38,977 bases of DNA, from positions 1-38,977 of the IMG/VR virus record IMGVR_UViG_3300025665_000804; one strand, given 5' to 3'. Origin of the DNA: a virus. Its lineage: Duplodnaviria > Caudoviricetes. Every line of letters begins with the position of its first letter. The stretch's first letter is position 1. A model generated the notes under the pieces. The model was not told the origin of the DNA. It saw only the letters and a list, made by a program, of their open reading frames with translations, and ran no database searches. Shown in pieces: positions 1-36,836 of this stretch. The position numbers and the translations under genes are program-made.

Positions 1-1
1 A

Positions 2-349
2 CTCAAGTCTTGTATTCACTGACGTGCCATAAAGCTGCATAAGCATCCCTACAGCCTTAAGCTGAAGATCCAAGCGTCCCTCTTTGGCTGCATTGGCAGT
101 GATGAGCTTAAGCATTCGCTCATGCTCTTTACGTCTTTCAGATGTGGTCCTACCATCCTCTTCAAGAGCGTTCTCTCGCCACCTCTTAAATGCTGCAGAG
201 ATGTATCGTGTCGCGGTACGCTTAGATACATCATACTTCTGCGCCAGAACCTTCTGGGCCTGCCGATTGGTCAGCCCTTGGAGAAGCAGAAGCTCTGCCT
301 GGTCAACCCTTGACTCCATCTGTTCTTTAGTAGATCTTTTTTCAGCCAT
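2..349 (-). CDS. Putative terminase small subunit / HTH DNA-binding protein (3' end outside window)
   Basis: Not in the ORF track. Read manually from ATG at 349 with AGGAG RBS at 356-360: MAEKRSTKEQMESRVDQAELLLLQGLTNRQAQKVLAQKYDVSKRTATRYISAAFKRW..., open to the window edge. HTH followed by helices resembles TerS. Confidence 0.6.
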   Translation of the reverse strand, partial: MAEKRSTKEQMESRVDQAELLLLQGLTNRQAQKVLAQKYDVSKRTATRYISAAFKRWRENALEEDGRTTSERRKEHERMLKLITANAAKEGRLDLQLKAVGMLMQLYGTSVNTRLE

Positions 350-384
350 AACATACTCCTCAAGGCAGTATATCAATAACCGCG

Positions 385-1665
385 TCAGTAAGAAACCAAT
401 TCGTAGAACCGCTGCTTGGGTCTATCAAACATCACGTTCACCTTACCCGTTCGACCGTGCCTATGCTTTTGCACTATGATGGTCCCCTCAACCGTCTCAT
501 GCCCATCACTCCACTCACTCTCAACATGCTCTGGATACGCTATCTTTAGGATGCCTGTTGCATCATGCTCTACCGCTCTAGACTCACGAATCTGCCCGCC
601 ATCGTTGAGTTGGCTTAACGCGATTACAGGTATTTCGTTAGTTCTTGCTATCGCAACAAGGCTGCTGGATATCTCAGCGACCTCTCGCTCTCTGGAGTAG
701 GTAGAGTCTGTCCTCAGAAGCTGTAGATAATCAATGATCACCATGTCGCACTTACCTAGCTTTACCTGCTGCCTTACTGCTGCACCCAGTTGATATAGAC
801 TTAATGACGGCTGATCGAGTATCAGGAAATTACCTGACGCAGAATATATTCTGCCTGCGGAGTGCTGCAGGCTATCAATTTGATCAGACGAAAGGTGTCC
901 AGATTCTATCAGGTTTCCTGCGATCCCAGATTCAGAGCTCACTATCCTTCTCATGAGATCAACGTGAGACATCTCGAGAGAACAGTACATCACCTTCGTG
1001 TCTCTAACTGCAGCATCAAATCCAATATTAACGCCCAGAACACTCTTCCCGCGCCCCGTGCCAGCACCAAGAACATAGAGCCCTCCGGGTCTGAATCCAC
1101 CGAGTATCTTATCTAGCCCCTGGATTCCTGACGAGATCCCCGGTGGCTTATTCTTTTCCGCCTCAGGTCTTTCAAATGCAGCCTGAGCAAGCCCTATCAC
1201 AGACTGAAGCGAGTCTTTGGCGGAGAAAAGTCTCTGCTCAGGAGTCAGGTCGTCCATATCAAGTAGACGCCCTATAGCAGTCTGCCTTGCTTCATATGCG
1301 CTGGAAGCGTCCTTAGCGAGAACAACAGCTTCAGATACTGCTTGAACGACACGTCTCTGCTGCGTTGACTCGCGCAGACTCTGACACATTTTCCCGAACG
1401 TGGAAGCTACCATCACATACTCGGAACTCATGTTCATCAGGTAATCAAACTTAACCGGAGTCGTTGTCGACTGAAGCGAATGATACACGCTTATCTGATC
1501 CACATCGTTTCCGGACATGAATAAATCGCATACAACCTTGTGAACATTTTGATGGACTTGGCTGGTCCAACAGTCAGCAGACAAGCTGACAAACTCCGTC
1601 AAATCAGCCCCTTGAAGGCAAGAAGAAATAATCTGCCCTTCAAGATCCTCGTGCATTGAAAACAA
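385..1665 (-). CDS. dnaB: DnaB-like replicative helicase
   Basis: Walker A GAGTGRGKS, SLEMS, Walker B VIIDYLQL, ALSQL, IRESRAVEHDA, KHRHGRTG; N-terminal DnaB domain; GGGAGG RBS before TTG start. Confidence 0.95.
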   Translation of the reverse strand: MFSMHEDLEGQIISSCLQGADLTEFVSLSADCWTSQVHQNVHKVVCDLFMSGNDVDQISVYHSLQSTTTPVKFDYLMNMSSEYVMVASTFGKMCQSLRESTQQRRVVQAVSEAVVLAKDASSAYEARQTAIGRLLDMDDLTPEQRLFSAKDSLQSVIGLAQAAFERPEAEKNKPPGISSGIQGLDKILGGFRPGGLYVLGAGTGRGKSVLGVNIGFDAAVRDTKVMYCSLEMSHVDLMRRIVSSESGIAGNLIESGHLSSDQIDSLQHSAGRIYSASGNFLILDQPSLSLYQLGAAVRQQVKLGKCDMVIIDYLQLLRTDSTYSREREVAEISSSLVAIARTNEIPVIALSQLNDGGQIRESRAVEHDATGILKIAYPEHVESEWSDGHETVEGTIIVQKHRHGRTGKVNVMFDRPKQRFYELVSY

Positions 1666-1789
1666 CCCAACCTCCCTATTAATAAGTAACCAGACTCAAA
1701 AACACTATTCTAATAAAATTGATAAATAAACCTTTATTTTAAAAAACTTTTCATGCATGATGACCAAGGATTAAGAAAGGAGTCAAATA
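1666..1789. promoter_or_regulatory. AT-rich divergent control region between helicase and recombination operon
   Basis: Strongly AT-rich intergenic gap; inverted repeat AAATAAA-CC-TTTATTT (1724-1739); palindrome TCATGCATGA (1751-1760); AAGGAG RBS for the next gene. Confidence 0.6.
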
Positions 1790-2065
1790 ATGACTGACCA
1801 AATATCTAGAAGAATTAAGATTCGAATCATGGCAATGGGCTGTTCGAGTCTTAAGAGTTTTGTTGAGGAGTATAAGTTGAACGGTGGCGTAAGACCATAC
1901 TCTTGGTGGAGAAATCTTTCGGAGGGGAGTCCGTACTCATCTCTTATTGAGGCCAGTGAGTGCCTGGGTGTCTCTGTTGATGCATTAATAGGAAGGTCTT
2001 CAGATTCGGACAGCGTCTTAATTAGAGAAGGCGTTCCTGGTGGCAGGGTAAACCTTAATGAGTGA
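1790..2065 (+). CDS. Cro/CI-like HTH transcriptional regulator
   Basis: Small protein ending P-x-x-x-LIEASECLGVSVDALIG, typical of the XRE/HTH_3 C-terminal helices; first gene after a divergent promoter; strong RBS. Confidence 0.7.
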   Translation: MTDQISRRIKIRIMAMGCSSLKSFVEEYKLNGGVRPYSWWRNLSEGSPYSSLIEASECLGVSVDALIGRSSDSDSVLIREGVPGGRVNLNE

Positions 2066-3131
2066 TAGAGCTGCACCGCCCAAGGACTCCATCGGGGGAA
2101 CGACGGCAGCACAAGTCCTGGGTCATAGTAAGTATGGCAACAGGCATGCTGCATATCGTAAGATAGTTTCTGCGTTGGACGGGAATCCCATCAGCATCCC
2201 AGTGAACTTTAACATGCACCGTGGGCTGCTTGCTGAAGATAAGATTGTCGATATGGTTAAAGAGGACTTTGAGTCTTCCACGGGTATGCGTATCGCAGAG
2301 TTGTTTGGCAGCGGCGTTGTTAGGCATAAGGATTTTCCTTTTATACATGCGACAGTGGACAGGGTCGTCTTTGATAAGTCTGGGAAGATACGCGGAATCG
2401 TTGAGGTGAAGAGCTGCGACAACACCTGGGCGAGCTTTGATTGGGAACGAAAGGATTACCGATGCCAGTTGGAGCACTATGACTGCATATTTAAATCTGC
2501 ATATGAGTCGGAGATCTCCGAGCATGGTCTTGATCATAACTACCTGCTTGTGGCAACAGGCGATGAGCATACGTGGAGAACGTTTGTGAGAATGATTGAG
2601 TCCGGTGAAGACCCTAGTGTGCTGAAGCCCATCATGGGCGTCGAGTATCGCAAGGTTGACTTTAGCGGAAGCTATAAAGACGAAAGCCTTCCTAGGCTCG
2701 TAGACTTCTGGACGAAGAATGTTGAGCCCAGAGTTATGCCTGATGTTGATGGGACCGATGGGTGCAAGGTCAACATTATGGAGGCTAACCCTGAGCGATC
2801 TGGCGGAAGGGTGGTGTCCGGTTCGGACCCTGAGTATGTTCAAGTCTCCACTATCATTGAGGGCAGGGCTAGGCTTAAGGCAAAATTAAAGGATCTGTCG
2901 GAGGAAGAGCGTGGGCTTAAAGAAGAGATAAGGCTCATGGACAACCACCTTAGATTTATTGTGGGTAGGAACAAGTGGATGGAGTCTGACTCGTTCAAGG
3001 TTACCGTGTCCAAAAGGGACGGTAGAAAGAAGTTCGATAAAGATCAATTCATGAGTGATAACCCAGGGCTTTACGAGAAGTATCAATCCGAAGGGGACGG
3101 ATATGAAGCTTTGAAGGTTACACTGAAATAA
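2058..3131 (+). CDS. YqaJ/lambda-exonuclease family recombination nuclease
   Basis: IGGTTAAQVLGHSKY, MHRGLLAE, ATVDR...VEVKS (PD-(D/E)xK), Q-x-x-HY motif, C-terminal coiled coil. Confidence 0.9.
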   Translation: MSDRAAPPKDSIGGTTAAQVLGHSKYGNRHAAYRKIVSALDGNPISIPVNFNMHRGLLAEDKIVDMVKEDFESSTGMRIAELFGSGVVRHKDFPFIHATVDRVVFDKSGKIRGIVEVKSCDNTWASFDWERKDYRCQLEHYDCIFKSAYESEISEHGLDHNYLLVATGDEHTWRTFVRMIESGEDPSVLKPIMGVEYRKVDFSGSYKDESLPRLVDFWTKNVEPRVMPDVDGTDGCKVNIMEANPERSGGRVVSGSDPEYVQVSTIIEGRARLKAKLKDLSEEERGLKEEIRLMDNHLRFIVGRNKWMESDSFKVTVSKRDGRKKFDKDQFMSDNPGLYEKYQSEGDGYEALKVTLK

Positions 3132-3149
3132 AAAACGAAAGAGGACGAA

Positions 3150-3791
3150 ATGTTAGCAAAGAAAGTATGGGAATCGTTTAGGTCTAAGCGAGTATTTGAG
3201 AATGGATACATAGAGAAGAAGGGTCGATATAGTTACCTTGCGTGGCATGCTGCACAGGAAATACTTAACGACGACTTTCCGGATAACACTGTAGAGTTCT
3301 CAATGTATAAGCACCCAAGCGGGTATGAGACCTGTGCCATGTATTACCCTGACGGAACGGCAGAGGTAAACTGCACCATCACGATTAGGGAGGACGGCGA
3401 GTCCTTTAGCAGGAGCATGTTTCTCCCTGTTAAGGATCACAAGCATAAGTCTATTGTTAACCCAAACTCTATGGCAATAAACACTGCAAAGCAGCGGTGT
3501 GTTGTTAAATGCTTGGCGATGATGGGGCTTGGTCTGCATGTATATATGGGCGCAGAAGATGATCCAGAATACGTAATGACTGGGCTGGATAAGGTTAGAG
3601 GATTCTGCTCTGAGTTGTCCGTGTCTGAAGACAAGCTTAACCAGTATGTCAAATCAGTGGCGAACGGGAGTTCTATCTACGAGATTGCTGACAGAGAAAA
3701 TGGCGACATCGATTCGCTTCTCCTTTACCTCAAAGACAAGGTAGAGGAAATAAATAATCAAGAAAACAACAAGCTGGAAGACCAGCAGTAA
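3150..3791 (+). CDS. DUF1071 / Sak-like single-strand annealing protein
   Basis: IEKKGRYSYLAWHAA, MFLPVKD, INTAKQRCVVKCLAMMGLGLHVY.GED motifs; lies between exonuclease and SSB. Confidence 0.85.
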   Translation: MLAKKVWESFRSKRVFENGYIEKKGRYSYLAWHAAQEILNDDFPDNTVEFSMYKHPSGYETCAMYYPDGTAEVNCTITIREDGESFSRSMFLPVKDHKHKSIVNPNSMAINTAKQRCVVKCLAMMGLGLHVYMGAEDDPEYVMTGLDKVRGFCSELSVSEDKLNQYVKSVANGSSIYEIADRENGDIDSLLLYLKDKVEEINNQENNKLEDQQ

Positions 3792-3803
3792 GGAGAAGAT
3801 GCT

Positions 3804-4331
3804 ATGTGGCATTCGACGATAATTGGAAACGTGGGCGATAATGGGGAATTGAAGACTGTTGGAGATGGAAAGCAGGTCTTAAGCTTCAATGTCGGGATTA
3901 AGACCGGCAGAGAAAACACAGAGTGGGCACAAGTTAGCGTGTGGGGCAACTACGGCGCGGCTATTGCGGAGTCTGTAAAGAAGGGTGCTCGAGTCACTGT
4001 TGTGGGACGAGTGACCGGTGTAGATGCATATCAAAAGAGGGACGGCGGATTCGGCAAGTCTGTGAAGATGACGGCTGACTCAGTTGAAATACATAGAAGT
4101 CGGGACGAGTCTCAGTCTCAGCAGTCTATGTCAATGCAGAAGAGGCAGCCTCAACAGCAACGGCAGGCTCCTCAGTCACAGCAGCAGTGGGGATCAACTC
4201 CACAGCAGCAGCCTTCACCTAGCCAGGGACAGTGGGGTTCTCAGCCTCAACAACAACAGCAGCAGCCAAACGGTGGTCAGCAGCAGTGGGGGTCTGCCCC
4301 GTCCAATGGTAGTGACCCGATTCCATTCTAA
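3804..4331 (+). CDS. ssb: Single-stranded DNA-binding protein
   Basis: OB fold (IIGNVG...TEWAQVSVWG...KKGARVTVVG), Q-rich linker, acidic tip SDPIPF. Confidence 0.92.
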   Translation: MWHSTIIGNVGDNGELKTVGDGKQVLSFNVGIKTGRENTEWAQVSVWGNYGAAIAESVKKGARVTVVGRVTGVDAYQKRDGGFGKSVKMTADSVEIHRSRDESQSQQSMSMQKRQPQQQRQAPQSQQQWGSTPQQQPSPSQGQWGSQPQQQQQQPNGGQQQWGSAPSNGSDPIPF

Positions 4332-4822
4332 TGAATATAATTGGGATTGACCCAGGGAAAAGCGGCGCTGTTGTCTCTATGAACTTAGAGACGCACGCCG
4401 TTTCCTCTAAACAAATAACGCCTATGGTCAAGGTGGGTAAGAGCAGGCAAGAGTACGACATCCAGGGTATGTCAGACATTCTTAAGTCTCTATCTAGGAA
4501 TGGCGGCAAGGTCTTTATCGAAAGGCAGCAGGCTAGACCTGGTCAAGGTGTCAGCTCTATGTTTACAACGGGTATGGGCTACGGGTTGTGGCTTGGCATA
4601 TGTGGTGGACTAGAGATACCGATTGAGGTGGTCAGCCCGATTTCATGGACAAGGGAAATGCTGCGTGGAGTTCCAGGTGAAGGCAAGGGCAGGAACATAC
4701 TCGGAGCAAAAAGGCTTTTCCCTTCAGAGGATCTGCGTAAAAGTGATAGAGCTCGAGTCGCCCATGATGGTATATGTGACGCACTGTTAATTTGCGAATA
4801 CGGATGGAGACTTAGCTCGTGA
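4331..4822 (+). CDS. ruvC: RuvC-like Holliday junction resolvase
   Basis: IIGIDPGKSGA, VFIERQ, GVSSMF, P-x-x-W, HDGICDALLI; phage RuvC pattern. Confidence 0.9.
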   Translation: MNIIGIDPGKSGAVVSMNLETHAVSSKQITPMVKVGKSRQEYDIQGMSDILKSLSRNGGKVFIERQQARPGQGVSSMFTTGMGYGLWLGICGGLEIPIEVVSPISWTREMLRGVPGEGKGRNILGAKRLFPSEDLRKSDRARVAHDGICDALLICEYGWRLSS

Positions 4823-5310
4823 AGTGGTTCATTACTCAAGAAATCGGAGACCTTAGTCAGAGACTAGTTGATGCGGGCGAGACGGTTCTATCTACACCGG
4901 ATACTCAAAGAAACCCCGATGACCCTGATATGGAAGAGCCCAAGGACTACAACCTTAGAAGCATCATCACTAGCCTAGAAGAAACTCCAGACGTGATAAT
5001 ATTTGGTAACATTAATCAGCCTCCCTTCTATGCTAAGGGATTTGCAAAGCTCTTCCACAGGAAGGGCGGCAAAGTATTAATGGGTGGAAATGATAACGAT
5101 CCAACGGGAATATTTTACAATAACAACAGAATGGTTCGATGCACCATGACGACCAAGCAGATCTCTGTCTACCTCACCAACGACGTCTCAGTTAAAAGAA
5201 AACTTCCCAGGAACACGCGAGTGTTTGACCTAAACGGGGATATTGAGTCCCTGATACAAGCAGCCCATGACACCCTCAACACAGTAGGCATGGGCAAGCT
5301 GTATGTTTAG
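4819..5310 (+). CDS. Hypothetical protein
   Basis: GTGA overlap with ruvC, tiles the operon; no recognised motif. Confidence 0.65.
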   Translation: MKWFITQEIGDLSQRLVDAGETVLSTPDTQRNPDDPDMEEPKDYNLRSIITSLEETPDVIIFGNINQPPFYAKGFAKLFHRKGGKVLMGGNDNDPTGIFYNNNRMVRCTMTTKQISVYLTNDVSVKRKLPRNTRVFDLNGDIESLIQAAHDTLNTVGMGKLYV

Positions 5311-5503
5311 ATGGGCAGAGGATGTTCTGATCCTGAACTCTGCCACTGCGCTGCTCTTTATAATCCTTGTTTTTTGTGCCATATTCATTCAAACAGAATT
5401 CAAGGTTGAAGACGTATGTTCCCGATTTTCTTTGAGAACTCCAAGGTTCCATCACTACTATCTAAGATCGCGCCTTTTAAGGTGGGTGGATTTTCCTTTC
5501 TAA
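5303..5503 (+). CDS. Small putative membrane protein
   Basis: Overlaps the upstream stop; one hydrophobic segment (ALLFIILVFCAIFI); overlaps the next ORF by 88 nt, so uncertain. Confidence 0.35.
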   Translation: MFRWAEDVLILNSATALLFIILVFCAIFIQTEFKVEDVCSRFSLRTPRFHHYYLRSRLLRWVDFPF

Positions 5504-5793
5504 TTTTCGTCTGGTGCCGTGGGATCGCGAGCCCAACACTTAGAAGGCATGAAATTACTCACTTTCTCCAGCAAAAGGAGTGTCTTTTTCTTCTGCAGTG
5601 GATCATGTACGGATTAGGCTGGGTTATACTCCTAGCTTATCATCGAGACACCTACCTTGCCTACCGAATGTCGCCTTTCGAAATCGAGGCATATGACAAT
5701 CAGCATGACCCCACATACAACACCCAAGCAAGAAAACCTTATGCATGGATTAAGTGCATCCCCAAGTCATTTGAAAGGATTAAAAATGCCTAG
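5416..5793 (+). CDS. Membrane-associated zincin-like metallopeptidase (HExxH)
   Basis: HEITH, hydrophobic helix, then AYRMSPFEIEAY supplying the third ligand Glu. Confidence 0.7.
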   Translation: MFPIFFENSKVPSLLSKIAPFKVGGFSFLIFVWCRGIASPTLRRHEITHFLQQKECLFLLQWIMYGLGWVILLAYHRDTYLAYRMSPFEIEAYDNQHDPTYNTQARKPYAWIKCIPKSFERIKNA

Positions 5794-6172
5794 AATACAG
5801 ATCAATACCGACGATATGAGACTACAAAGGCTCGAGGAGATTGGAGAGCAACTTACGAAGAGTAATCCAGAGACCAGTATCTCTATCAAGAGAAGCACTG
5901 CCTTTGACTACCTGATTGATGCCATAGTAAATGCTAATCAAACCATGAACGCTCAGAAGGCGGACATAAACAGGCTGCAGTCCCTAGTCAAGGATGGCGA
6001 GAAGTCAGAGGTTCTCCAGAAGAAGCTTGATGACCTAACTGAGGAGCATGAGAAAACTCAGTACAAGCTGAACGGATGCAGGAATGACTGTCACAGGTTA
6101 GAGCGTGGAGCCACAGGCATGATGGAGACAATCTCATTTCTTGTAGATAGGCTTCGAGGTCTCGAGCTATGA
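5786..6172 (+). CDS. Putative ribbon-helix-helix DNA-binding protein with C-terminal coiled coil
   Basis: Start moved to ATG 5786 (AAGGA upstream). MPRIQINTD (alternating strand), MRLQRLEEIG (helix), KRSTAFDYLIDAI (helix), then heptad-rich region; ATGA-coupled to the tubulin gene. Confidence 0.55.
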   Translation: MPRIQINTDDMRLQRLEEIGEQLTKSNPETSISIKRSTAFDYLIDAIVNANQTMNAQKADINRLQSLVKDGEKSEVLQKKLDDLTEEHEKTQYKLNGCRNDCHRLERGATGMMETISFLVDRLRGLEL

Positions 6173-7188
6173 GTGAGGTTTCATTCCGATGGGGGTTCGT
6201 AGGGATAGGTCAGGGTGGATGCAGAATTGCTCAGTCATTTTATTCCCTGGGATACAAGGACTGTGTATTTATAAACACTGCCAATGTGGACCTAGCTGGA
6301 CTTGATGTTCCGTCGGAGCTAAAGCTGCTAATTGGTGGACACGGTGACGGAGCAGGTAAGGACCCGTCTATAGCTGAAGAGGCAGCATCCAATCAAAGGG
6401 AGGAAATAGGTGACGCAATTAAGGCTTTATCTGATTGTGACCAGGTGTTCATATGCACTGGTGCGGGCGGGGGAACTGGTTCAGGTGCAGCCTTGCCTGT
6501 TCTTGAGATAGCGAAGATGTGTCTACCATCCATTCCTGTTGGACTGATATCCTCCATGCCTGCAAAGCAAGAGCTGGTTTCAGATGCAACCAGAAAGAAT
6601 GCGAAAAATCTTCTCAACGTATGCTGCGACTTGGCTGATTCGGGGGAACTGTCCCCGTTCATTGTTATGGATAACGAGCTAGTTAAGAAGAGGGTTAGAC
6701 CGAGATCATTAAGGACTCTATGGATCGACGGTAATCTTGCGTTCGCCAACATACTTCACAAAATCAACAGGCTATCTGCGACCCCAACAATGCTGGTTAG
6801 CTTGGATAAGGCTGATCTTAAGACGCTTATGTTTAGAAGCGGAACCCTCTTTGTAGGGTCTCGAGAAATCAACAATCCTGAAGACAGGGTTCTAGTTGAA
6901 AAGCACCTCAATATAGCGTTCACCGCTGGCACTGTGCTTCATTCTGATTCTCCGCTTAAAGAGTCGGACTGTGCTCTGGTTCTTACTATGCCGAGCAGGA
7001 TTCTGGATGGTGACGTTAGGTTCTTTGACCTCTTTACCGGGGTGGTAAACAAGTACCTGACCACTATGCCAAACTCTTATATTCACCGGGGGATATACGA
7101 AGACGAGTCTAGACCTGCGATTCGTGCTACAGTCCTGAGCATTGGAGACAAGTCTCCACGAAGTAAGATTGTGGCTAGGCTCAAGTAG
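6169..7188 (+). CDS. FtsZ/tubulin-superfamily GTPase (TubZ/PhuZ/CetZ-like)
   Basis: GIGQGGCRIA, INTA, GDGAGKDP, signature GAGGGTGSG, DNE, T7-like SLDKADL. Confidence 0.92.
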   Translation: MSEVSFRWGFVGIGQGGCRIAQSFYSLGYKDCVFINTANVDLAGLDVPSELKLLIGGHGDGAGKDPSIAEEAASNQREEIGDAIKALSDCDQVFICTGAGGGTGSGAALPVLEIAKMCLPSIPVGLISSMPAKQELVSDATRKNAKNLLNVCCDLADSGELSPFIVMDNELVKKRVRPRSLRTLWIDGNLAFANILHKINRLSATPTMLVSLDKADLKTLMFRSGTLFVGSREINNPEDRVLVEKHLNIAFTAGTVLHSDSPLKESDCALVLTMPSRILDGDVRFFDLFTGVVNKYLTTMPNSYIHRGIYEDESRPAIRATVLSIGDKSPRSKIVARLK

Positions 7189-7782
7189 CTACTTTATCTC
7201 AACGAGATCCCCGTACTTCATTACGAGCCGCCCAATCTCAGACATAACCTCGTTGGCAACATCGGTATCATAGATTATAACCCTATGTATGGCAGGTTTA
7301 GGATCGTCCTCACACCAGGTCGATTCAGCCCCGTCGCCCTCTTCATCCACAAACGCCATCACAAGATCGTCTTTGAGACCTAGCGCATCAATGGTGTCCA
7401 TCTCTGGACCATCGAGAAGAGACGATATTGCTTCAGCTAGTTTATCTGAATCCCATGTAGAAAGCTCCGCCGTCTTGTTGTCCACCAAGGCAAAGGCCTT
7501 TGCCTGCTCATCGGTCCCATCCCATTCAACACAAGCGACACTGTCCCAGCCAAGGGCTTTGGCGGCTGTTACGCGCCCAGACCCGGCTACGCAGGTGAAC
7601 GTATAGCTGCTAGTCTTTCTTACCAGCACAGGGAACACCTGCCCGTACTGAAGAAGACTTAGCTTAATCCCTTCAATGGATTCCTTTCCATGCCTCCTCG
7701 CGTTGTCCGGGTCGGCAACTATTTGATCCAGAGGCTTTAGCATCGGAATAAGATCCTTGTGAACATTCCCCTTGTTTTTCAT
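7189..7782 (-). CDS. ParB/Srx N-terminal domain protein
   Basis: DPDNARRH, SLLQYGQVFPVLV, VAGSGRVTAAKALGW, AFALVDNKTAELSTWD. Confidence 0.85.
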   Translation of the reverse strand: MKNKGNVHKDLIPMLKPLDQIVADPDNARRHGKESIEGIKLSLLQYGQVFPVLVRKTSSYTFTCVAGSGRVTAAKALGWDSVACVEWDGTDEQAKAFALVDNKTAELSTWDSDKLAEAISSLLDGPEMDTIDALGLKDDLVMAFVDEEGDGAESTWCEDDPKPAIHRVIIYDTDVANEVMSEIGRLVMKYGDLVEIK

Positions 7783-7826
7783 TTTCCGTCCCTTTTAACT
7801 GTTGAGGTACCTACGTAGGAGCAGGC

Positions 7827-8159
7827 ATGAAAAGAATTAGACCCATCACGAAGCAGGAAGTCCAAGAAATTCTAGACAGAAATAGGGAGGTCTCGGAATT
7901 TGTTCAGAAGAAGATTGGTCCCACCACCTGGAAAGAGCTTCTAGAGGAGTACGGAATGACTCAATCAAGTATGAATAATGCTCTGTCAAAGGGTGGGCTG
8001 CTTTCTCCCATGAACAGGGGTCCCGTAAGGAGGTCAAAAATGAGCAGCTTCGATGTCCTAAAGTCCATGACTGAGACACTGTGGATGAGAAGTGGTGATC
8101 AGTACGGAGAGATAATAAAGGAGGCTGCAGAAGACATCTTGGCTAAGCAAGATCTCTAA
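7827..8159 (+). CDS. Hypothetical protein, possible HTH
   Basis: AGGAG RBS; TWKELLEEYGMTQSSMNNALSKGG is HTH-like. Confidence 0.6.
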   Translation: MKRIRPITKQEVQEILDRNREVSEFVQKKIGPTTWKELLEEYGMTQSSMNNALSKGGLLSPMNRGPVRRSKMSSFDVLKSMTETLWMRSGDQYGEIIKEAAEDILAKQDL

Positions 8160-8928
8160 CTGCAACAATCTTTGCGTCATTCTCCATGGTGCCATTATAG
8201 GAGCCTACGCCGTCAATAATCCCCCCGGCTCCAGGTGAGTCTCCGTCGCCCATCCTCCACCATGAAACAAGGTCTGAATGGCGAGAGAAGGACAGCATGT
8301 CTAATGGTCGGCCCTGGTTATACACTTCTAATGCCTCCGAAGGGTTGACCTCAAAATTATAAACAACGCATTCCGTGATATACTTTTCAAACTCGTTGCC
8401 AATGCCTCCAGCAGCATTAGCCCCAATTCTAACAGGGCTTGATGTGGACTGAAGCCCTGTATAGGGTGACGGATTACTCCTGGATACGGATTGGGTCTGC
8501 CCGTTAACGTAAACGCTTATACCGTTCTGACTCTTGGAGCCATCATAAGTCATCATTACATGGGACCACTCACCTGGAGGAAGTAGTCCAGAGCTCTGAG
8601 TGAAGGCACGTATAGCAGCTAGGTTACTGCCGCTTCCATCGTAAATAAACGCCTGAATCTCGCCCTGGTCATGAACCAGGAGCCAGTTGGATGGTACACC
8701 GTTTCCGCTGTTTTTTGATAGGATCGCGCCTTGATCATTCGAAGAGGTTGTCTGAACCCACGCACTGATAGAAAAGGGTCTATCGTTCCCAGCCCCATCC
8801 GTAAAGTTGAATACTGGATGGTCCCCCACCTCGACATAATCTTCAGTCCCATCCATCTCGATCACTAGCTTGCGGGATCTTCCGACACCGGGACCTCGAT
8901 ACGTGGGATCATCTTTACCAAAAGACAT
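8143..8928 (-). CDS. LamG/concanavalin-A-like lectin domain protein (probably virion-associated)
   Basis: DGTEDYVE, FSISAWV, WSHVMMTYDG, VYVNG, IGA, LVSWWRMGD motifs of LamG-like jellyrolls. Confidence 0.85.
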   Translation of the reverse strand: MSFGKDDPTYRGPGVGRSRKLVIEMDGTEDYVEVGDHPVFNFTDGAGNDRPFSISAWVQTTSSNDQGAILSKNSGNGVPSNWLLVHDQGEIQAFIYDGSGSNLAAIRAFTQSSGLLPPGEWSHVMMTYDGSKSQNGISVYVNGQTQSVSRSNPSPYTGLQSTSSPVRIGANAAGGIGNEFEKYITECVVYNFEVNPSEALEVYNQGRPLDMLSFSRHSDLVSWWRMGDGDSPGAGGIIDGVGSYNGTMENDAKIVAVRDLA

Positions 8929-8937
8929 AAGTAATTC

Positions 8938-9294
8938 CTAAAGCAGTATGCCAAGAAGTATACCAGAAACGAGCCCGATAGAGACCGTTAAAATCTTATC
9001 CTTTAATTCAAGGGATGATTGGTTTCTTTGTATCTCGCTTTTAAGAAGGTCTTCTCTTGCGAGGTAGAGCTTCATTCGTATGTCTATATCCCTTAGGCAC
9101 TTATCCCTTTCCGCCATGAGCGTTGGGACGGCAACCCTCTTGCACTCCAGAGCAGACCTAAGTTTTACCTCTGGAACAAGGATGCCTGAGCATGGTGACT
9201 GAATGGGTATGGATGATTTACATTCTTCAGAATTCGCTGTCGAACTCAGAAGCAAGACTAGAACCAGAGAGGTCATCAATTCTTTCCTTCTCAT
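8938..9294 (-). CDS. Secreted/membrane protein, possible spanin component
   Basis: N-terminal signal-like hydrophobic stretch, four Cys, coiled coil, C-terminal TM helix; last gene of an overlapping membrane-gene cluster. Confidence 0.5.
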   Translation of the reverse strand: MRRKELMTSLVLVLLLSSTANSEECKSSIPIQSPCSGILVPEVKLRSALECKRVAVPTLMAERDKCLRDIDIRMKLYLAREDLLKSEIQRNQSSLELKDKILTVSIGLVSGILLGILL

Positions 9295-9499
9295 GCTCTA
9301 TCTCCTTTATCGTCTCTTCGAATTCCTCGTTCGAATCAGAGAGTTCCTCCTCAAAGGGGAGCGAAAGTTTCTCGAGCTCATCAGAAATGCCAATGTCTCG
9401 TGTTTTCTTAGATGCAAAATACCGATATATGAATCCGAATATTAGGACATACGAAAGTATCTCAAGCGTCTTCCTTAGTGTCTTCCTTACCTGATCCAT
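9227..9499 (-). CDS. Membrane-anchored coiled-coil protein, possible i-spanin
   Basis: N-terminal TM (ILSYVLIFGFIY) followed by acidic helical region; follows the holin-like gene. Confidence 0.5.
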   Translation of the reverse strand: MDQVRKTLRKTLEILSYVLIFGFIYRYFASKKTRDIGISDELEKLSLPFEEELSDSNEEFEETIKEIEHEKERIDDLSGSSLASEFDSEF

Positions 9500-9797
9500 C
9501 CTCGAGCTCCTTGATATCCACCTTGGCTTTGGATGATAGCATTCTCTTGATTAGAGCAACAGTGAAGGCAGACATTGCACCACAAGCAGCGCCGAGTCCA
9601 GCACCATGAGCAGTGGGCTCCATTCCAAATCCAACACCACACCCTATGATGATTGCAGATATTCTCAGAACTGCATCAGAGATGTGCTTGGGTAGCCTGT
9701 TTTTGCAGATTGGTTTGATTGCTTGGACTACGCCCCAGCTAACGAACGAGCAAACAAGAACGTGCTTGATGTCGAGCAACTTAATCAGATCTTCCAC
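9462..9797 (-). CDS. Putative holin
   Basis: 111 aa, 2-3 hydrophobic helices, VVQAIK motif, highly charged C-terminus. Confidence 0.6.
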   Translation of the reverse strand: MEDLIKLLDIKHVLVCSFVSWGVVQAIKPICKNRLPKHISDAVLRISAIIIGCGVGFGMEPTAHGAGLGAACGAMSAFTVALIKRMLSSKAKVDIKELEDGSGKEDTKEDA

Positions 9798-10098
9798 GGA
9801 TTGCCTCCTTGAGTCTTGGCATGCCTCGCTTGACTTCAGAGAGATCCTCCTCCACCTTTCTCAGCGAGACCTGGTTTTCTTTGGTGATCAGCATGAGCGA
9901 ATCAATCTTATCCTCGAGACGTTCAACCCTAGACTTGGTATCCTCTGACCGCTGATGGGCGGACTCAGCCTTAGCCTCAACATCCTTAACCATGACGGTC
10001 ACCGCAACAATCGAAGCAGCAACCGAGAGCGCCATGGGCACCCAGATTGAAGCAGCGGATATGTCGGTAGAATTATTATTATCTTGATGGCTACTCAT
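9781..10098 (-). CDS. Membrane protein with coiled coil (holin-adjacent)
   Basis: One TM followed by RVERLEDKIDSL coiled coil, a common pattern in phage lysis cassettes. Confidence 0.55.
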   Translation of the reverse strand: MSSHQDNNNSTDISAASIWVPMALSVAASIVAVTVMVKDVEAKAESAHQRSEDTKSRVERLEDKIDSLMLITKENQVSLRKVEEDLSEVKRGMPRLKEAIRGRSD

Positions 10099-10194
10099 AC
10101 AAACTCCATTATAGCCAATATACTGGAGACATTAAACAATTTATACCCATCGATGCAGCATGCCTATATCGATCATGGCTTAGGAGATTCCGGA

Positions 10195-10818
10195 ATGATA
10201 GTGACTGTTATAATCCCATACAACGTGTCAAGGGGATACCTTGGCGAAGCTGTAGATAGCGTTAAGTCTCAGACATACGAAAATGTGGAGCTAATCATAG
10301 AGAAAGGGGACTGCGTTTGGCCGGTATCTGCAAATAAGGCTATTCGAAAATGCAAGGGCGGCTTGATAAAAATTCTTTCAGAAGACGATCTACTAACGCC
10401 TACAAGTGTAGAAAGTGCGGTTGAGTATTTTTCAACCAACGATGCGGACTTCATACACTCCAACGCAATAAATTTCCATAAAAATGGACGTGAAGAATAC
10501 TGGAATCCTTCAGAACAAAAGTATCCAGGGTCGCCCCATCCAACACTTGAGCGAAATCTTGAGAAAAACAGTATCCACGGTGGAACTGTTACGTACAGAA
10601 AAAAGTGTTTTGATGAAAGGCTTTTTGATGAAACGCTTTGGACCGGAGAGGAATGGGAGTTTCACCTTTGGTTACAGAAAAGCGGATATAAACTTGGATA
10701 TTTAAATGAGTTTACGACCAGATGCAGAAGGCATCCTAATCAGAAGTCTCTTGGATCCCAGTCAAGACAAAAAGACAGACAAAAAGAATTCAGCAGAATA
10801 AGAGCTAAATTCAAATAG
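10195..10818 (+). CDS. GT2-family glycosyltransferase
   Basis: Start moved to ATG 10195 (AGGAG RBS). VTVIIPY, YLGEAVDSVKSQTYENVELII, LSEDD, FDETL..GEEWEF, RRHPNQKS. Confidence 0.9.
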   Translation: MIVTVIIPYNVSRGYLGEAVDSVKSQTYENVELIIEKGDCVWPVSANKAIRKCKGGLIKILSEDDLLTPTSVESAVEYFSTNDADFIHSNAINFHKNGREEYWNPSEQKYPGSPHPTLERNLEKNSIHGGTVTYRKKCFDERLFDETLWTGEEWEFHLWLQKSGYKLGYLNEFTTRCRRHPNQKSLGSQSRQKDRQKEFSRIRAKFK

Positions 10819-10863
10819 TTCACCAAGGATATTAAAGTCTTGGATCTTAATTACCGTATGTAA

Positions 10864-11607
10864 TCAAAGCTTGTCCCAGTCAGTGCCTAGTACGATCTCA
10901 TTTGTATGAGATCTTCGATCCATTGCCCCTCCAAGACTCCTGCTGCTGGCGTCCCATATCGTATTTCTAATATTTAAGACCTTAAAGTCCCCACTTGAGT
11001 GTCGTAACACGTATAAACTGATGCCGTTCTCTTGAGCATGCTTTGCGACAAATATATCACTCATATTTATATGTTTAAACATCTTAAGAGATGGAGTGAA
11101 CGTATCCAAACCAAACGCCATACAGCCAGTCCCGCCGACGTTGACCCTTCGCGTTCTTTGAACGTGCCCCTTGCATGGGAAGGTGGTCTTTCCTCTTGAC
11201 GAATGGTACTCGCCAGCATTTTTATGAATCAATGCTCCATGGTAGCTAACAATTTTTCCAATGTGCTCATCTTTAAGAAGTCTTATTGTTCGACTTGTGT
11301 ACCATTCTGGATAGATTATGTCGTCGTCGCAGGTAAAGACGAATCCATTTATTCCATATGTATCCTTCATCTCCTCGGAGCAGAAGTAGAACTTTCCGAC
11401 ATCGCCAAGGTCTCCATGCTTCCCAGATGAAGACGTCTCGTACTCTACCTTATTAACACTCTTAGCCCACATCGGAACTTCACTCTCTTCATAATTGTTG
11501 AAGTAAATAAAGAGCCTATCGACCTGGGGAAGAAGGCTTTCACAGACGAGCTTTAATTCTTTCTTTCGAGAGGGAATCGTTGCAAGACACGCGACCACTT
11601 CATTCAT
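10864..11607 (-). CDS. GT-A fold glycosyltransferase
   Basis: LATIPSR, SLLPQVD, GDVGKF, FTCDDDIIYP (DxD), GTG, NMSDIF. Confidence 0.85.
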   Translation of the reverse strand: MNEVVACLATIPSRKKELKLVCESLLPQVDRLFIYFNNYEESEVPMWAKSVNKVEYETSSSGKHGDLGDVGKFYFCSEEMKDTYGINGFVFTCDDDIIYPEWYTSRTIRLLKDEHIGKIVSYHGALIHKNAGEYHSSRGKTTFPCKGHVQRTRRVNVGGTGCMAFGLDTFTPSLKMFKHINMSDIFVAKHAQENGISLYVLRHSSGDFKVLNIRNTIWDASSRSLGGAMDRRSHTNEIVLGTDWDKL

Positions 11608-12337
11608 CTACATTTCTCCCATTCAAAACGACGAGTCGATGAGGGGAGAGGTCGTCTTGGTGATATATTGTTTCGTCGTGCCACATGCTCTCATACTTCT
11701 TCCTCAACTCAGACCCAAACCCAGTCTCCTTATTATGAGTCAACTGATCCCCGTGCTGGCGGTATAGGTAGGAGTAGGCTCGATACATGCTTAGGTGCCC
11801 TCCTAGCTTCTGAGCTCGGTAGAACATGTCGCTATCTGCGGAGCACGGCCACTGACGAAACATGCCCAGCCTCTCTATCATGTTCCTTGAGTAAGCGTAA
11901 CATCCGCCCAGAGGATGTATGGACCTCTTGAGCCTTCGTCCTGAAGCATCAATCTTGCAACTATATGTATTTACGATAGAGTTATAATTGTGGAACGACC
12001 TGAGGATGTCCCTAGACCGAGACGGAGTCCACATGTCATCCACGCCACAGAAAGAAACTGAATCAGAATCAAGAAGACTGAGCCCTACGTTTTGAGCACA
12101 ATATGATCCAGAGTTCTTATCCAGCATCGCAATAGTAAAGTTGCTTCTGGCTTTAGAATCATAGAAGCACTCCTTGGCAATTTTAAGGGCATCTTTATCC
12201 CCATCAACAACCAAGATGATTTGATTCAATGAAGACCACTGGGATGTCAGGCTGTATATGCAATCCCGAATGTATCCATGGTGTCCATAGATCGGGACAA
12301 CTACAGCCAGGGTCTTTATGGGTGACACTGCAATCAA
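11600..12337 (-). CDS. GT2-family glycosyltransferase
   Basis: VVVPIY, ILVVDG, NSGSYCAQNVG, GVDD, ADSD, YRQH. Confidence 0.88.
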   Translation of the reverse strand: MIAVSPIKTLAVVVPIYGHHGYIRDCIYSLTSQWSSLNQIILVVDGDKDALKIAKECFYDSKARSNFTIAMLDKNSGSYCAQNVGLSLLDSDSVSFCGVDDMWTPSRSRDILRSFHNYNSIVNTYSCKIDASGRRLKRSIHPLGGCYAYSRNMIERLGMFRQWPCSADSDMFYRAQKLGGHLSMYRAYSYLYRQHGDQLTHNKETGFGSELRKKYESMWHDETIYHQDDLSPHRLVVLNGRNVDE

Positions 12338-12903
12338 TTTGTCCTCTTAACTATAGCCACTTCCTTCATGGGAAAGTCAGGCACCGCCACATTGACAACA
12401 TCAAAACCCTCCGGAACCACTATGGGTCTATAGAAGCAATGCCTAGCAAGCCTCACCCCATCCATTAACCTGTTCCAATAACTAAAGACTCCAACGCTAC
12501 CAATGTTGCTAAAGAACGTACTCATAACTTCATTGTGAGCATCGTCACTATTAAGGTGAAAGAGCACGTCCATCATAATCACCATATCCATAGGATCAAA
12601 GAATCCCTGAATGTCTGACTTCTTAAATGAGGAAACAGGAGAAGGAGGAGAAGAGTTATGCCGCTGTATAACAGGTTGAGCTATATCAATACCGAGGTAC
12701 TCTGATGGGTTAAGTTGATCGAGTATAGGAAAAATTAAATTGCCATCTCCGCACCCAAGGTCGAGAATGCTTTCGCACCTTGATGCCTTAAACTCTCTAA
12801 TTAGAATAGATCTCTTAAATTCGGCCTCATCACCATATGAACCGGCACCAGAGTCTCCCCCAGATGAATACCTGTTAGACCAATAATCATTCTCGTTATA
12901 CAT
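12334..12903 (-). CDS. Class I SAM-dependent methyltransferase
   Basis: YWSNRYSSGGDSGAGSYG, ILDLGCGDG, YLGIDI, DVLFHL; family often found with glycan loci. Confidence 0.9.
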   Translation of the reverse strand: MYNENDYWSNRYSSGGDSGAGSYGDEAEFKRSILIREFKASRCESILDLGCGDGNLIFPILDQLNPSEYLGIDIAQPVIQRHNSSPPSPVSSFKKSDIQGFFDPMDMVIMMDVLFHLNSDDAHNEVMSTFFSNIGSVGVFSYWNRLMDGVRLARHCFYRPIVVPEGFDVVNVAVPDFPMKEVAIVKRTN

Positions 12904-13099: not shown

Positions 13100-14278
13100 T
13101 TAGGCGGTGATGTTGACCACTGCGAACAGGTTTGGTCGGATTGTCGCGTTTGCATAGCGAGTCATGACACCCATGTCTACACATGCAGTACGAGGATCTC
13201 GGAATACACCAAGGTCACTTACTGGAATGTAAGTAGCGTGGATGTGACCAATTTCCTGTGGATTGTCAGACTTAACGCCCAACAACAAAGTGTTGGCAGG
13301 CATGAAGCGCATTTTCCAGATGTCATATCGGTGGTTAGCTACGCCAAACTTGTTGCTGTAAGCATCGATATCGCCACGCACAGAATCAGTTCGGTCAGCG
13401 CCAGCACTAGTGATGCTGAAGGCTTGGAGTTGCTCAAGGAACAACAGTCCGTCAGGATCGCCAGCAATCCAGTTAGCGCCACGGAAACCATCAGCAGACT
13501 TAAAGATGTCGTTGTCTGCAGTTTGGATTGCATCATAAAGAGTCTCTTGGTGAATCTTTGGATCCAATGAAGCGTAAACGCCCTGAGGAGTCTGTGACCA
13601 GCCAACAGTGTTATTAGTGTTTGCGATAAGCTGATCAATAACTTCGCCCTGCATCTCACGTCGGAGCTCAGTAGCCATGAAGTTACGAAGTCGATCAGAC
13701 AAAGAGTCGCCGTACTGGCTCTCAAGATCTTGTTCAGCCTGAACTGTGTATCGAGCCTGAAGTCGCTTACACTCCGCAGTGATGGTTGAAGCAGTCAAAG
13801 AAAAGTCAACGCCAGCACCGTCATTGCAAGAGCTTTGGGGCGTTTCACCAGGGCAGTCCGCATAGTTTGGATCAAGACCAGTGTTGAAGTCAGTGTCAGG
13901 TCCGTAGACTCCTTGGTCCGCCTGCTGGTATCCCATGGTGTGAACGAAAGCAGTTGGACCGTCCATTGTTCGCACGTCCACAAGCTGATCAATTACGATC
14001 TGCTCGAAAACCATGTCCACCATCGCAAGAGACTGCTTGGTGAAAGTAGCGATGTCGTCAGGAACGATGTTCTCCGTAAGAGTAGAAGGAAAAATCCCTC
14101 GGTCAGCCTTGAATACGCTGGCAATGTTGCCGCGCCGAGCTGTCTCTTGGATGAATCGGTACTGACGCTCCATTGCAGAAGCAACAACTTTCTGCTTCTC
14201 AGGACGCTTTGCGCTGATGTACTCACCCCATTTCTCTACGAGCGTAGGGGCATTCTCGTTTAATGCTAAGATACTCAT
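13100..14278 (-). CDS. Major capsid protein, T4 gp23-like family
   Basis: LVEKW, VRTMDGPT, ITAECKRLQARYTVQAEQDLESQYG, ATELRRE, ANWIAG, YIP, DPRT...GVMTRYA match gp23 motifs; directly downstream of the protease. Confidence 0.9.
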   Translation of the reverse strand: MSILALNENAPTLVEKWGEYISAKRPEKQKVVASAMERQYRFIQETARRGNIASVFKADRGIFPSTLTENIVPDDIATFTKQSLAMVDMVFEQIVIDQLVDVRTMDGPTAFVHTMGYQQADQGVYGPDTDFNTGLDPNYADCPGETPQSSCNDGAGVDFSLTASTITAECKRLQARYTVQAEQDLESQYGDSLSDRLRNFMATELRREMQGEVIDQLIANTNNTVGWSQTPQGVYASLDPKIHQETLYDAIQTADNDIFKSADGFRGANWIAGDPDGLLFLEQLQAFSITSAGADRTDSVRGDIDAYSNKFGVANHRYDIWKMRFMPANTLLLGVKSDNPQEIGHIHATYIPVSDLGVFRDPRTACVDMGVMTRYANATIRPNLFAVVNITA

Positions 14279-36214: not shown

Positions 36215-36836
36215 GTCAGGCGAGGTTACCGAGTGGATGCTCGAGAGAATGGTTTCACTCTGGCAGTCTGAGAATGGTCTTGTGGCGGACGGGAAGTGTG
36301 GACCTGACACGCAGTCAGCATTATTCAATACAAGAGAGTCCGAGATTGAGTACGAGTGCTCATTTCTTGCTGCCGAGTCTCTTGGGATCGCCAAGTCTCA
36401 AATTGGTCAGGGTGAAGTTGGTGGAAACAACTCTGGTCCTTACGTTGAAATGCTTCTTCACAAAGAGTACGACGGCGACGATGATGATGATGGTGCATGG
36501 TGTGCAGCGTTTGTCTCATTCTGCATTTCTGAGGCATCGGGTGGAAACCCTCCTTTTGAAATGTCGTTTGGCGCTAAGGCTATATTTGGAAACGCTGCTG
36601 CCTTTGGGTCCAAGAGTATGACGCCTAAGGCTGGCGATATCGTGTGCTGGGATCGAGGAAGCCTGAACCCTGATGGCACTAAGAGTTGGCAGGGTCACGT
36701 CGGGTTTGTCGAGAGGGTTGATGGCGATATATTTTATACCATCGAGGGCAACAAGGGCAGCTACCCTTCTAAGGTTGCCAGGTTCAAGTATGAGCTCAGT
36801 AAGGAGTCTAGGCTTGAGGGGTTCGCCTCTTTCTAG
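36189..36836 (+). CDS. Endolysin-like protein: peptidoglycan-binding domain + CHAP/NlpC-P60 peptidase
   Basis: WQSENGLVADGKCGPDT (PG_binding_1), AWCAAFV, GHVGFV, IEGN. Confidence 0.88.
   Translation: MDYNKSRVESGEVTEWMLERMVSLWQSENGLVADGKCGPDTQSALFNTRESEIEYECSFLAAESLGIAKSQIGQGEVGGNNSGPYVEMLLHKEYDGDDDDDGAWCAAFVSFCISEASGGNPPFEMSFGAKAIFGNAAAFGSKSMTPKAGDIVCWDRGSLNPDGTKSWQGHVGFVERVDGDIFYTIEGNKGSYPSKVARFKYELSKESRLEGFASF

Follow-up and report, generated by a model that had tools for sequence, protein, structure and literature searches.

How might a tailed phage far below jumbo size use a tubulin that has almost no C-terminal tail, and what does the small protein encoded directly upstream of it do? 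The question arises at positions 5786 to 7188 of a 38,977-nucleotide stretch of virus DNA (Caudoviricetes; IMG/VR record IMGVR_UViG_3300025665_000804), the whole of which is called the window here. A gene for a tubulin-family GTPase overlaps there with a gene for a 128-amino-acid (aa) protein, the partner. A first-pass annotation had read the two as a new type III-like DNA-positioning system with a ribbon-helix-helix (RHH) adaptor or, alternatively, as a host-division inhibitor. Our analysis showed that the tubulin is TubZ-like in fold and that it and its close relatives make up a supported clade apart from the references for FtsZ, PhuZ, and plasmid TubZ. That its filament positions phage DNA through the partner, acting as an adaptor of a non-TubR kind, is the explanation that we favor, though tentatively. 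The features of the pair are as follows.

5786..6172, plus strand: partner, 128 aa, with a predicted RHH N-terminus, then a coiled coil, and a hydrophobic motif conserved at the C-terminus (alignments, model, weak matches)
5786..5935, plus strand: RHH-like module, residues ~1-50, with an M-x-R-I-x-h-x-h strand pattern, helix A (8-25), a longer loop, and helix B (alignments, model)
6169..6172, plus strand: ATGA stop/start overlap of partner and tubulin (sequence; overlap or 1-nt gap in relatives)
6169..7188, plus strand: tubulin-family GTPase, TubZ-like, 339 aa, without N-terminal extension or C-terminal tail (Pfam, motifs, model)
6208..6219, plus strand: T1 loop GQGG, residues 14-17 (alignment)
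6466..6486, plus strand: T4 signature GGGTGSG, residues 100-106 (alignment)
6805..6816, plus strand: T7 catalytic D213-K-A-D216 (D216 invariant, D213 nearly so; aligned with the FtsZ/TubZ T7)
7159..7182, plus strand: short terminal helix, residues 331-338 (RSKIVARL), the entire C-terminal region (AlphaFold model)

The 339-aa protein matched Pfam Tubulin with an E value of 2.5e-17 (64 bits compared to a cut-off of 33), and its AlphaFold model, built from an 88-row alignment, showed a complete two-domain tubulin/FtsZ fold at a predicted local distance difference test (pLDDT) score of 94.8. The features that define the superfamily, namely this fold, T1, the T4 signature GGGTG(S/T)G, and the T7 DxxD, were all present, as the first-pass annotation had said of the full-length protein and its GGGTGSG and DxxD motifs. 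GQGG, GGGTGSG, DxxD, and GAGKDP (residues 61-66) are mostly invariant in 15 close-clade proteins; the invariant residues are G12, G14, Q15, G16, G17, G61-A-G-K64, G100-G-G-T-G104, and G106, along with D168, N169, N189, and D216. Compared to a 96%-identical relative (L004), nonsynonymous (dN) and synonymous (dS) divergence were 0.020 and 0.54, a dN/dS of ~0.04 that indicates strong purifying selection. This selection and the motif conservation in the close clade rule out a chance open reading frame (ORF) or a pseudogene. The mix of tubulin/CetZ-like GQGG and FtsZ-like GAGxDP motifs that had been singled out is indeed present, but it is not special because GQGG also occurs in c-st TubZ, and the phage G gene 138 product, one plasmid TubZ-like protein, and one PhuZ each have GAG with a basic residue after it. 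A chimera of tubulin and FtsZ motifs was therefore ruled out, the same motifs being ordinary in the TubZ grade.

What distinguishes this tubulin is the missing tail. Only 10 residues follow P330, compared to 49 to 112 in nine plasmid and phage TubZ-like references (71 to 103 after the equivalent position in c-st, B. cereus, and pBtoxis TubZ). The number is 9 to 13 in the close and deeper clades and 6 to 34 in the wider family, two truncated rows being set aside. Neither the FtsZ C-terminal linker nor its conserved peptide was found in these 10 residues, in agreement with the earlier observation that the FtsZ tail is lacking, and T1 reads GQGG compared to GGGG or GGAG in FtsZ. The short basic tip that had also been described is usual in the close clade, whereas the sister clade ends in VIQEL or AINDL.

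Phylogeny, one of the checks proposed in the first-pass annotation, placed the tubulin outside the characterized FtsZ, PhuZ, and TubZ clades sampled. In a 72-row tree, 13 representatives of 336 to 341 aa formed one clade (98 in the Shimodaira-Hasegawa-like approximate likelihood ratio test [SH-aLRT]), which joined four sequences of 345 to 366 aa with a support of 99; the same two nodes had supports of 100/98 and 100/99 in a 44-row mixture-model tree. The FtsZ references stood on their own side in both (100 SH-aLRT and 96/96, respectively), which rules out a captured host ftsZ. The order among the close clade, the c-st, pBtoxis, and RepX TubZ proteins, one CetZ-like reference, and a larger group from viruses and metagenome-assembled genomes (MAGs) was not resolved in the 44-row tree, from which 28 hand-picked rows had been omitted (26 family rows and references that were close or looked redundant, and two further FtsZ references). 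The tree references were few, with two PhuZ, no eukaryote-type tubulin, and a single CetZ, the pHV4 protein, which we take to be a CetZ and which sits on a long branch without grouping with the query. The two PhuZ references also lie on a long separate branch, and the query shows neither PhuZ grouping nor a PhuZ-type C-terminal tail. The Foldseek TM-scores were best to TubZ (0.80 for 4ei7 and 0.79 for 2xka) compared to 0.64 to 0.72 for FtsZ chains, which come first by E value and are 20 to 26% identical to the query. In BFVD, the top match was an uncultured Caudovirales protein, A0A6J5RW92 (TM 0.87, 24% identity), and the sole match named PhuZ had a TM of 0.54. The lineage is an unnamed tail-less viral tubulin clade that, on the features tested, belongs to none of TubZRC, PhuZ, and FtsZ.

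Turning to the partner, its ORF (5786-6172) is preceded by a ribosome site, GAAAGGA, and is under purifying selection (dN 0.020, dS 0.57, dN/dS ~0.04, compared to L004). The family is small, with nine more 119- to 134-aa proteins or loci at 22 to 81% identity besides L086 (alignment A6); three profile matches (P0132, P0135, and P0136) were set aside because the profile matched long proteins in several stretches, P0132 alone having been inspected. The M-x-R-I-x-h-x-h pattern is kept in 11 family sequences, helix B begins at an invariant R36 within a kept R36-x5-YL motif, and the C-terminal part is a coiled coil of ~70 residues with a hydrophobic motif around a nearly invariant L119. It is quite likely that the N-terminus is an RHH. 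RHH_1 came up below threshold in two of eight family N-termini (E value of 0.14, 12.6 bits compared to a cut-off of 20.5). When an N-terminal profile was compared to the PDB, 5 of the 20 matches were of the RHH type, namely CopG (twice), NikR, a CopG-family regulator, and YiiF, which we take to be RHH-type, at E values of 0.08 to 1.1; these align strand to strand from profile position 1 or 2 but rank under three unrelated helical matches. HHalign aligned the N-terminus in register with one CopG-family protein, weakly (probability of 5.7%), and the best ESM Atlas matches of the whole partner were below 0.9, with one NikA-like (RHH) cluster at 0.84. In the profile search, the window partner matched no helix-turn-helix (HTH) or winged-helix family. 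The monomer model (pLDDT 72, five-row alignment) has three helices, among them 8-25 and 32-69, and no wing or strand, residues 1-7 being unformed; a lone RHH chain would likewise leave its strand unformed in a monomer model. This evidence is weak but convergent. The coiled coil of the first-pass annotation was borne out, and its RHH was suggested but significant in no search; structure prediction, which it had also called for, gave a complete tubulin and a strandless partner.

Linkage of the two genes is strict within the close clade. The partner lies directly upstream of the tubulin in 10 out of 10 close-clade loci, window included, which represent five lineages with tubulin identity down to 38% (in L088, only the last 36 partner residues are on the contig, and they match P0134). 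The ATGA coupling reported earlier is the overlap at 6169-6172, and translational coupling is maintained in all five lineages. Judging by gene layout, the pair would also be expressed with the recombination genes, as had been proposed, since partner and tubulin end one coupled run that holds exonuclease, annealase, SSB, and resolvase.

These observations can be put together as follows. The GTPase would polymerize into a dynamic filament while phage DNA replicates or between replication rounds; polymerization and GTP-driven dynamics are likely from the intact T4 and T7 and from the family. The cotranslated 128-aa protein would be a DNA-binding dimer that tethers phage DNA to the filament, so that phage genomes would be positioned or partitioned in the host. 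Its RHH fold and DNA binding are predicted, and its adaptor role is proposed. Because the tubulin has no tail, the adaptor would have to touch the tubulin body, via the coiled coil or the conserved C-terminal motif as ParR-type adaptors do, and not by the TubR-tail route. The characterized phage tubulins described in PMC10299810 and PMC7824862 all position or segregate DNA, and small motor-plus-RHH cassettes with ParA or ParM motors are described in plasmid prophages (PMC8026635). A predicted complex of the tubulin with two partner copies scored 0.00 in two runs, which is evidence neither way.

Several findings weigh against this explanation. No partner was found within 3 kb of the tubulin in any of six deeper-clade loci (L007, L087, L084, L085, L089, and L094) or in 150 more distant loci, many of them redundant or short. 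The gene run from dnaB to the ParB-like gene downstream of the tubulin is syntenic as a whole in L006 and L083, so common descent of the phages explains at least some of the adjacency. Within that run, the partner is the least conserved of the retained genes (30% identity to L083, undetected by tblastn in L006). Between L083 and L086, partner dN is 0.38 with dS saturated, compared to a tubulin dN of 0.034; this is not what tight coevolution predicts. The best partner-like gene in the complete sister-clade phage G007 is a weak match (E value of 0.08 to 0.14; HHalign probability of 1.3%). No centromere-like, tubC, or iteron repeat array was found in positions 1-12000, where the DNA upstream of the partner is coding. 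There is no tail for TubR-type docking; since TubR binds the TubZ tail, that type III route is unavailable. Finally, the RHH fold gave no significant match in profile, HHalign, Atlas, or Foldseek searches: Pfam RHH did not match the window partner, nothing was found in the ESM Atlas for residues 1-52, and Foldseek with the monomer model returned only generic helical matches and none at E ≤ 0.001. Of the earlier proposal of a type III-like system with an RHH adaptor, what stands is a TubZ-like, non-FtsZ tubulin in a nonjumbo phage with a conserved RHH-like gene upstream; what is weakened is the partnership, which is confined to one clade with its whole operon conserved and has neither an adjacent partner in the sister clade, nor tubC-like repeats, nor a tail. 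The system may work like type III but is not a member of it.

Separately, L083 and L086 have tubulins that are ~92% alike and partners (9628-9999) that differ mainly in the coiled coil, a possible allele exchange. In G007, two tandem RHH-like plus coiled-coil ORFs lie upstream of head genes (G007:C1 64812-65550, equal to L213:4812-5550) as possible distant partner homologs; some 30 kb separates them from the tubulin, and the N-terminal profile matches one of them best in that genome, at an E value of only 0.14.

The surroundings of the pair bear on the alternatives, and the relevant features are listed here.

1666..1789: A+T-rich gap between dnaB and the operon, 124 bp, the only sizeable noncoding DNA upstream of the pair; candidate promoter/operator
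1790..5793, plus strand: coupled upstream genes for a 91-aa protein, YqaJ, Sak, SSB, RuvC-like resolvase, a 163-aa protein, a membrane protein, and an HExxH protein
7189..7782, minus strand: ParB_N-domain protein, 197 aa, convergent, its stop codon abutting that of the tubulin (Pfam ParB_N E value of 3.7e-09, PHROG 620)

The coupled upstream run is syntenic in L006 and L083, the annealing gene excepted: in place of Sak (window 3150-3791), these loci carry an unrelated gene, ERF-like by eye (L006:7011-7688 and L083:7016-7687). The operon is headed by a small candidate regulator (1790-2065), HTH-like by eye with no family match. A conserved single-membrane-span protein (5303-5503) comes shortly before the partner, and its coding sequence accounts for an apparent gap at 5311-5415, which was rejected as noncoding; an HExxH protein (5416-5793; PHROG 15610, protease) lies directly before the partner and, in L087, 5 kb from the tubulin. 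The only repeats found in 1-12000 were the coding Gln-rich repeats of SSB, and a promoter scan was at chance level (6 found compared to 8.0 expected). One sequencing run presumed to be RNA covered just 7501-7964, in one small contig.

The convergent ParB-like gene was overlooked in the first-pass annotation, as was the size of the wider viral family. All 16 close and deeper loci have the ParB-like gene beside the tubulin, as a profile match in 15 and, in L006, where the gene is cut, as a tblastn match; none of the 150 more distant loci has it. It thus tracks the tubulin further than the RHH-like partner does, and its product is a possible third component. The C-terminal domain of this protein is not the same in the two clades, that of the deeper clade ending in an RHH-like stretch by eye with no family match (ParB_N proteins at L084:3071-3718, L087:11388-12005, and L094:5747-6358). 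Where genes upstream of the tubulin were read in the deeper clade, an HTH-phosphoesterase stood in the place of the partner; these HTH plus calcineurin-like phosphoesterase proteins of 446 to 469 aa are at L084:268-1668, L087:8595-9980, and L094:2126-3466.

One alternative is that the filament positions DNA or particles without the partner, in the manner of PhuZ or through the ParB-like protein, and that the RHH-like gene is a transcription regulator that shares the operon, as CdrS does with ftsZ2. We consider this a close rival, somewhat less likely than the favored explanation. It would account for the lack of an adjacent partner in all 156 nonclose loci, the RHH-coil-like genes unlinked to the tubulin in G007, the absence of iterons in 1-12000, and the closer tracking of the tubulin by the ParB-like gene; regulation by an RHH protein encoded just before a tubulin-family gene also has a precedent (described in PMC7439475 and PMC8406309). 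The maintained translational coupling is harder to fit to a regulator, the 70-residue coiled coil and the conserved motif at L119 suggest a protein-contact role, and a candidate regulator already occupies the head of the operon. As to the ParB-assisted variant, some families into which such ParB_N genes fall are methyltransferase-linked (PHROG 498), and the link between ParB and tubulin may therefore be positional.

The tubulin, alone or with the partner, could instead block host division by poisoning or outcompeting the FtsZ ring, so that phages would be produced in an enlarged cell; division inhibition is the other role proposed at the outset. Its place in an early replication/recombination operon would suit such an inhibitor, and a tail-less polymer cannot be anchored by FtsA or ZipA. 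Weak, sub-cut-off matches to the ZapB coiled coil in 5 out of 10 partner sequences point the same way, but this is a generic coiled-coil signal among 73 families. The option is improbable and little supported because the protein is not FtsZ-derived: identity to FtsZ structures is 20 to 26%, its lineage is separate from FtsZ, and T7 is intact and invariant, as expected of an autonomous dynamic filament. A late or membrane-linked role, such as capsid trafficking or lysis timing with small membrane proteins as anchors, appears very improbable. A small membrane protein and the HExxH protein do precede the pair, the sister-clade tubulin abuts a gene for a membrane plus coiled-coil protein in the lysis/structural region, and distant members stand by eye beside large head-like or small membrane genes. 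However, no single membrane neighbor is common to all clades, and the tubulin here is at the end of a recombination operon, transcribed opposite to the virion and lysis genes.

Positioning of phage DNA through the partner is thus retained as the favored explanation, and the tubulin can be set in its wider family. A pattern scan found 289 related loci in IMG/VR, 393 in a partial metagenome scan, and 6 in GTDB genomes (80 of the 289 and 80 of the 393 were kept), and the close clade sits within this broad, largely viral radiation of short-tailed tubulins. Most of the wider-family members carry acidic or basic N-terminal extensions of 27 to 226 residues, which the close clade lacks, and their upstream genes vary. 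Loci L008-L081 and L090-L161 hold short-tailed viral tubulins with acidic Pro-rich extensions on contigs of up to 170 kb (G010 is complete), with changing neighbors that include a conserved 90-aa gene, 610- to 670-aa genes, and small membrane genes. Another branch (L162, L164, P0026, P0030, P0031, and P0085) has extensions of 80 to 226 residues, mostly Lys/Ser/Ala-rich and histone-H1-like by eye; two of its members are in Planctomycetota MAG contigs, and in MAG G006 the extended tubulin is the only Tubulin-domain match. The pattern scan of 185,579 GTDB genomes found no close-clade tubulin, all 6 matches being 28 to 32% identical, and none of 50,697 isolated-phage records matched the tubulin at an E value of 1e-3; the distant P0016 matches phage G only.

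Further analysis of the phage was based on a Pfam and PHROG scan of 40 ORFs in the window, which found genes for DnaB, YqaJ, Sak, SSB, RuvC-like resolvase, a Gp23-type capsid, a prohead protease, an 1848-aa tape measure, and a CHAP endolysin. The tape measure and an HK97-gp10-like protein make the phage long-tailed by gene content and, because no tail sheath was matched among the scanned ORFs, the siphovirus-like morphology given earlier is reasonable but unproven. Terminase and portal are located upstream in G002. A T4-type Gp23 capsid (window 13100-14278) and a T4-like portal (G002, L171:10429-11934) thus occur alongside a long tape measure and lambda-like recombination genes, and three glycosyltransferases, a methyltransferase, and a 247-aa gene near the head/tail genes (window 10084-12903 and 36833-38788) suggest virion or DNA glycosylation. 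The window record is a fragment (52% by CheckV), an identical tubulin is on a 105,204-bp marine contig (L082), and the G007 genome, at 75,141 bp, is complete and has terminal repeats, so that genome size in these phages is put at roughly 75 to 105 kb, far below jumbo size. With possible source samples left out, runs of five marine, seawater, or viral-metagenome studies contain at least half of the sampled words, and in one of those runs a single contig spans 1500-8300, differing at 22 positions. A search of G001, G002, G007, and G010 revealed no tyrosine integrase. In G007 (40 of 86 ORFs scanned), a DnaC-like ATPase (loader), DnaB, and a 238-aa serine recombinase were found, a set that, like the lack of a tyrosine integrase, is compatible with a plasmid-like state but does not prove it; no homolog of the recombinase was found in the parts of the present phage examined. 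Short serine recombinases occur in proven plasmid prophages, but partition-like genes are no proof of plasmid replication (both according to PMC8026635).

Characterized phage tubulins come from jumbo phages (PhuZ) and c-st, compared to a minimal tubulin in tailed phages of 75 to 105 kb here, and related viral loci number in the hundreds (one pattern scan gave 289 from IMG/VR alone). With neither the TubZ tail nor the PhuZ tail, it is a test case for how a bare core assembles and grips cargo, and both proteins are small enough to be tested in vitro with no need to culture the host. Should the RHH-like protein prove to be the adaptor, partition motor and adaptor classes would be interchangeable across types II and III. 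A fuller version is possible but doubtful: a hybrid segregation machine of a tail-less tubulin motor, a ParR-like RHH coiled-coil adaptor, and possibly a third, ParB-like part, carried by marine phages of medium size with a possible plasmid state, as one branch of a short-tailed viral tubulin radiation that has swapped partners repeatedly. In the literature searched, which excluded subscription papers and bioRxiv supplements, we found no such machine, no paper that treats this lineage, and no phage tubulin paired with an RHH adaptor, although metagenomic annotation tables may list such genes. The main text of a tubulin family phylogeny (PMC9871819) nowhere contains "phage" or "virus," and the phage tubulins treated in PMC7824862, PMC10299810, and PMC12484599 are those of jumbo phages.

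Compared to known systems, the pair resembles several in part. The uncharacterized viral "FtsZ" entries include the best structural match (A0A6J5RW92), and the wider family is databased as FtsZ; A0A6J5RW92 and the phage G gene 138 product are longer (452 and 376 aa, respectively), and their descriptions report neither a tested function nor such a partner. PhuZ of nucleus-forming jumbo phages is likewise a compact phage-encoded tubulin with intact T4 and T7, but it is very distant (TM 0.54), has an acidic tail in contrast to the short basic helix here, and belongs to genomes unlike the ~75- to 105-kb ones considered here; it is not known to have a centromere adaptor. The CdrS-ftsZ2 operon of haloarchaea shares an RHH gene immediately upstream of a tubulin-family gene (L200 annotation) and an N-terminus that aligns in register with that of the partner (the weak 5.7% match), but CdrS regulates transcription of a true FtsZ on archaeal replicons and has no long coiled coil annotated. 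Type II ParMRC and type Ib systems, including those of plasmid prophages (IEBH, B83, pVv01, and D6), also place an RHH adaptor beside a nucleotide-driven motor, and ParR is described as using its C-terminal part to contact its motor (PMC5016525, PMC8026635). The motor of these systems is of the actin-like or Walker type with the adaptor usually downstream, whereas here it is a tubulin with the candidate adaptor upstream. Closest in the motor is TubZRC/TubY type III of pBtoxis, B. cereus pXO1-like plasmids, and Clostridium phage c-st, with a TubZ-like fold (TM of 0.79 to 0.80 to 2xka and 4ei7), a small gene for a predicted DNA-binding protein immediately before the tubulin gene, and GQGG in c-st TubZ. 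TubY, described as an HTH plus a coiled coil (PMC7762940), shares the layout of a DNA-binding head and a coiled coil, and TubR is described as a winged-helix protein that, at tubC repeats preceding the operon, binds the C-terminal tail of TubZ (PMC5016525). The present pair differs in its RHH-like adaptor candidate, its 10 compared to 49 to 112 tail residues, its lack of an upstream noncoding array, and its separate tubulin clade.

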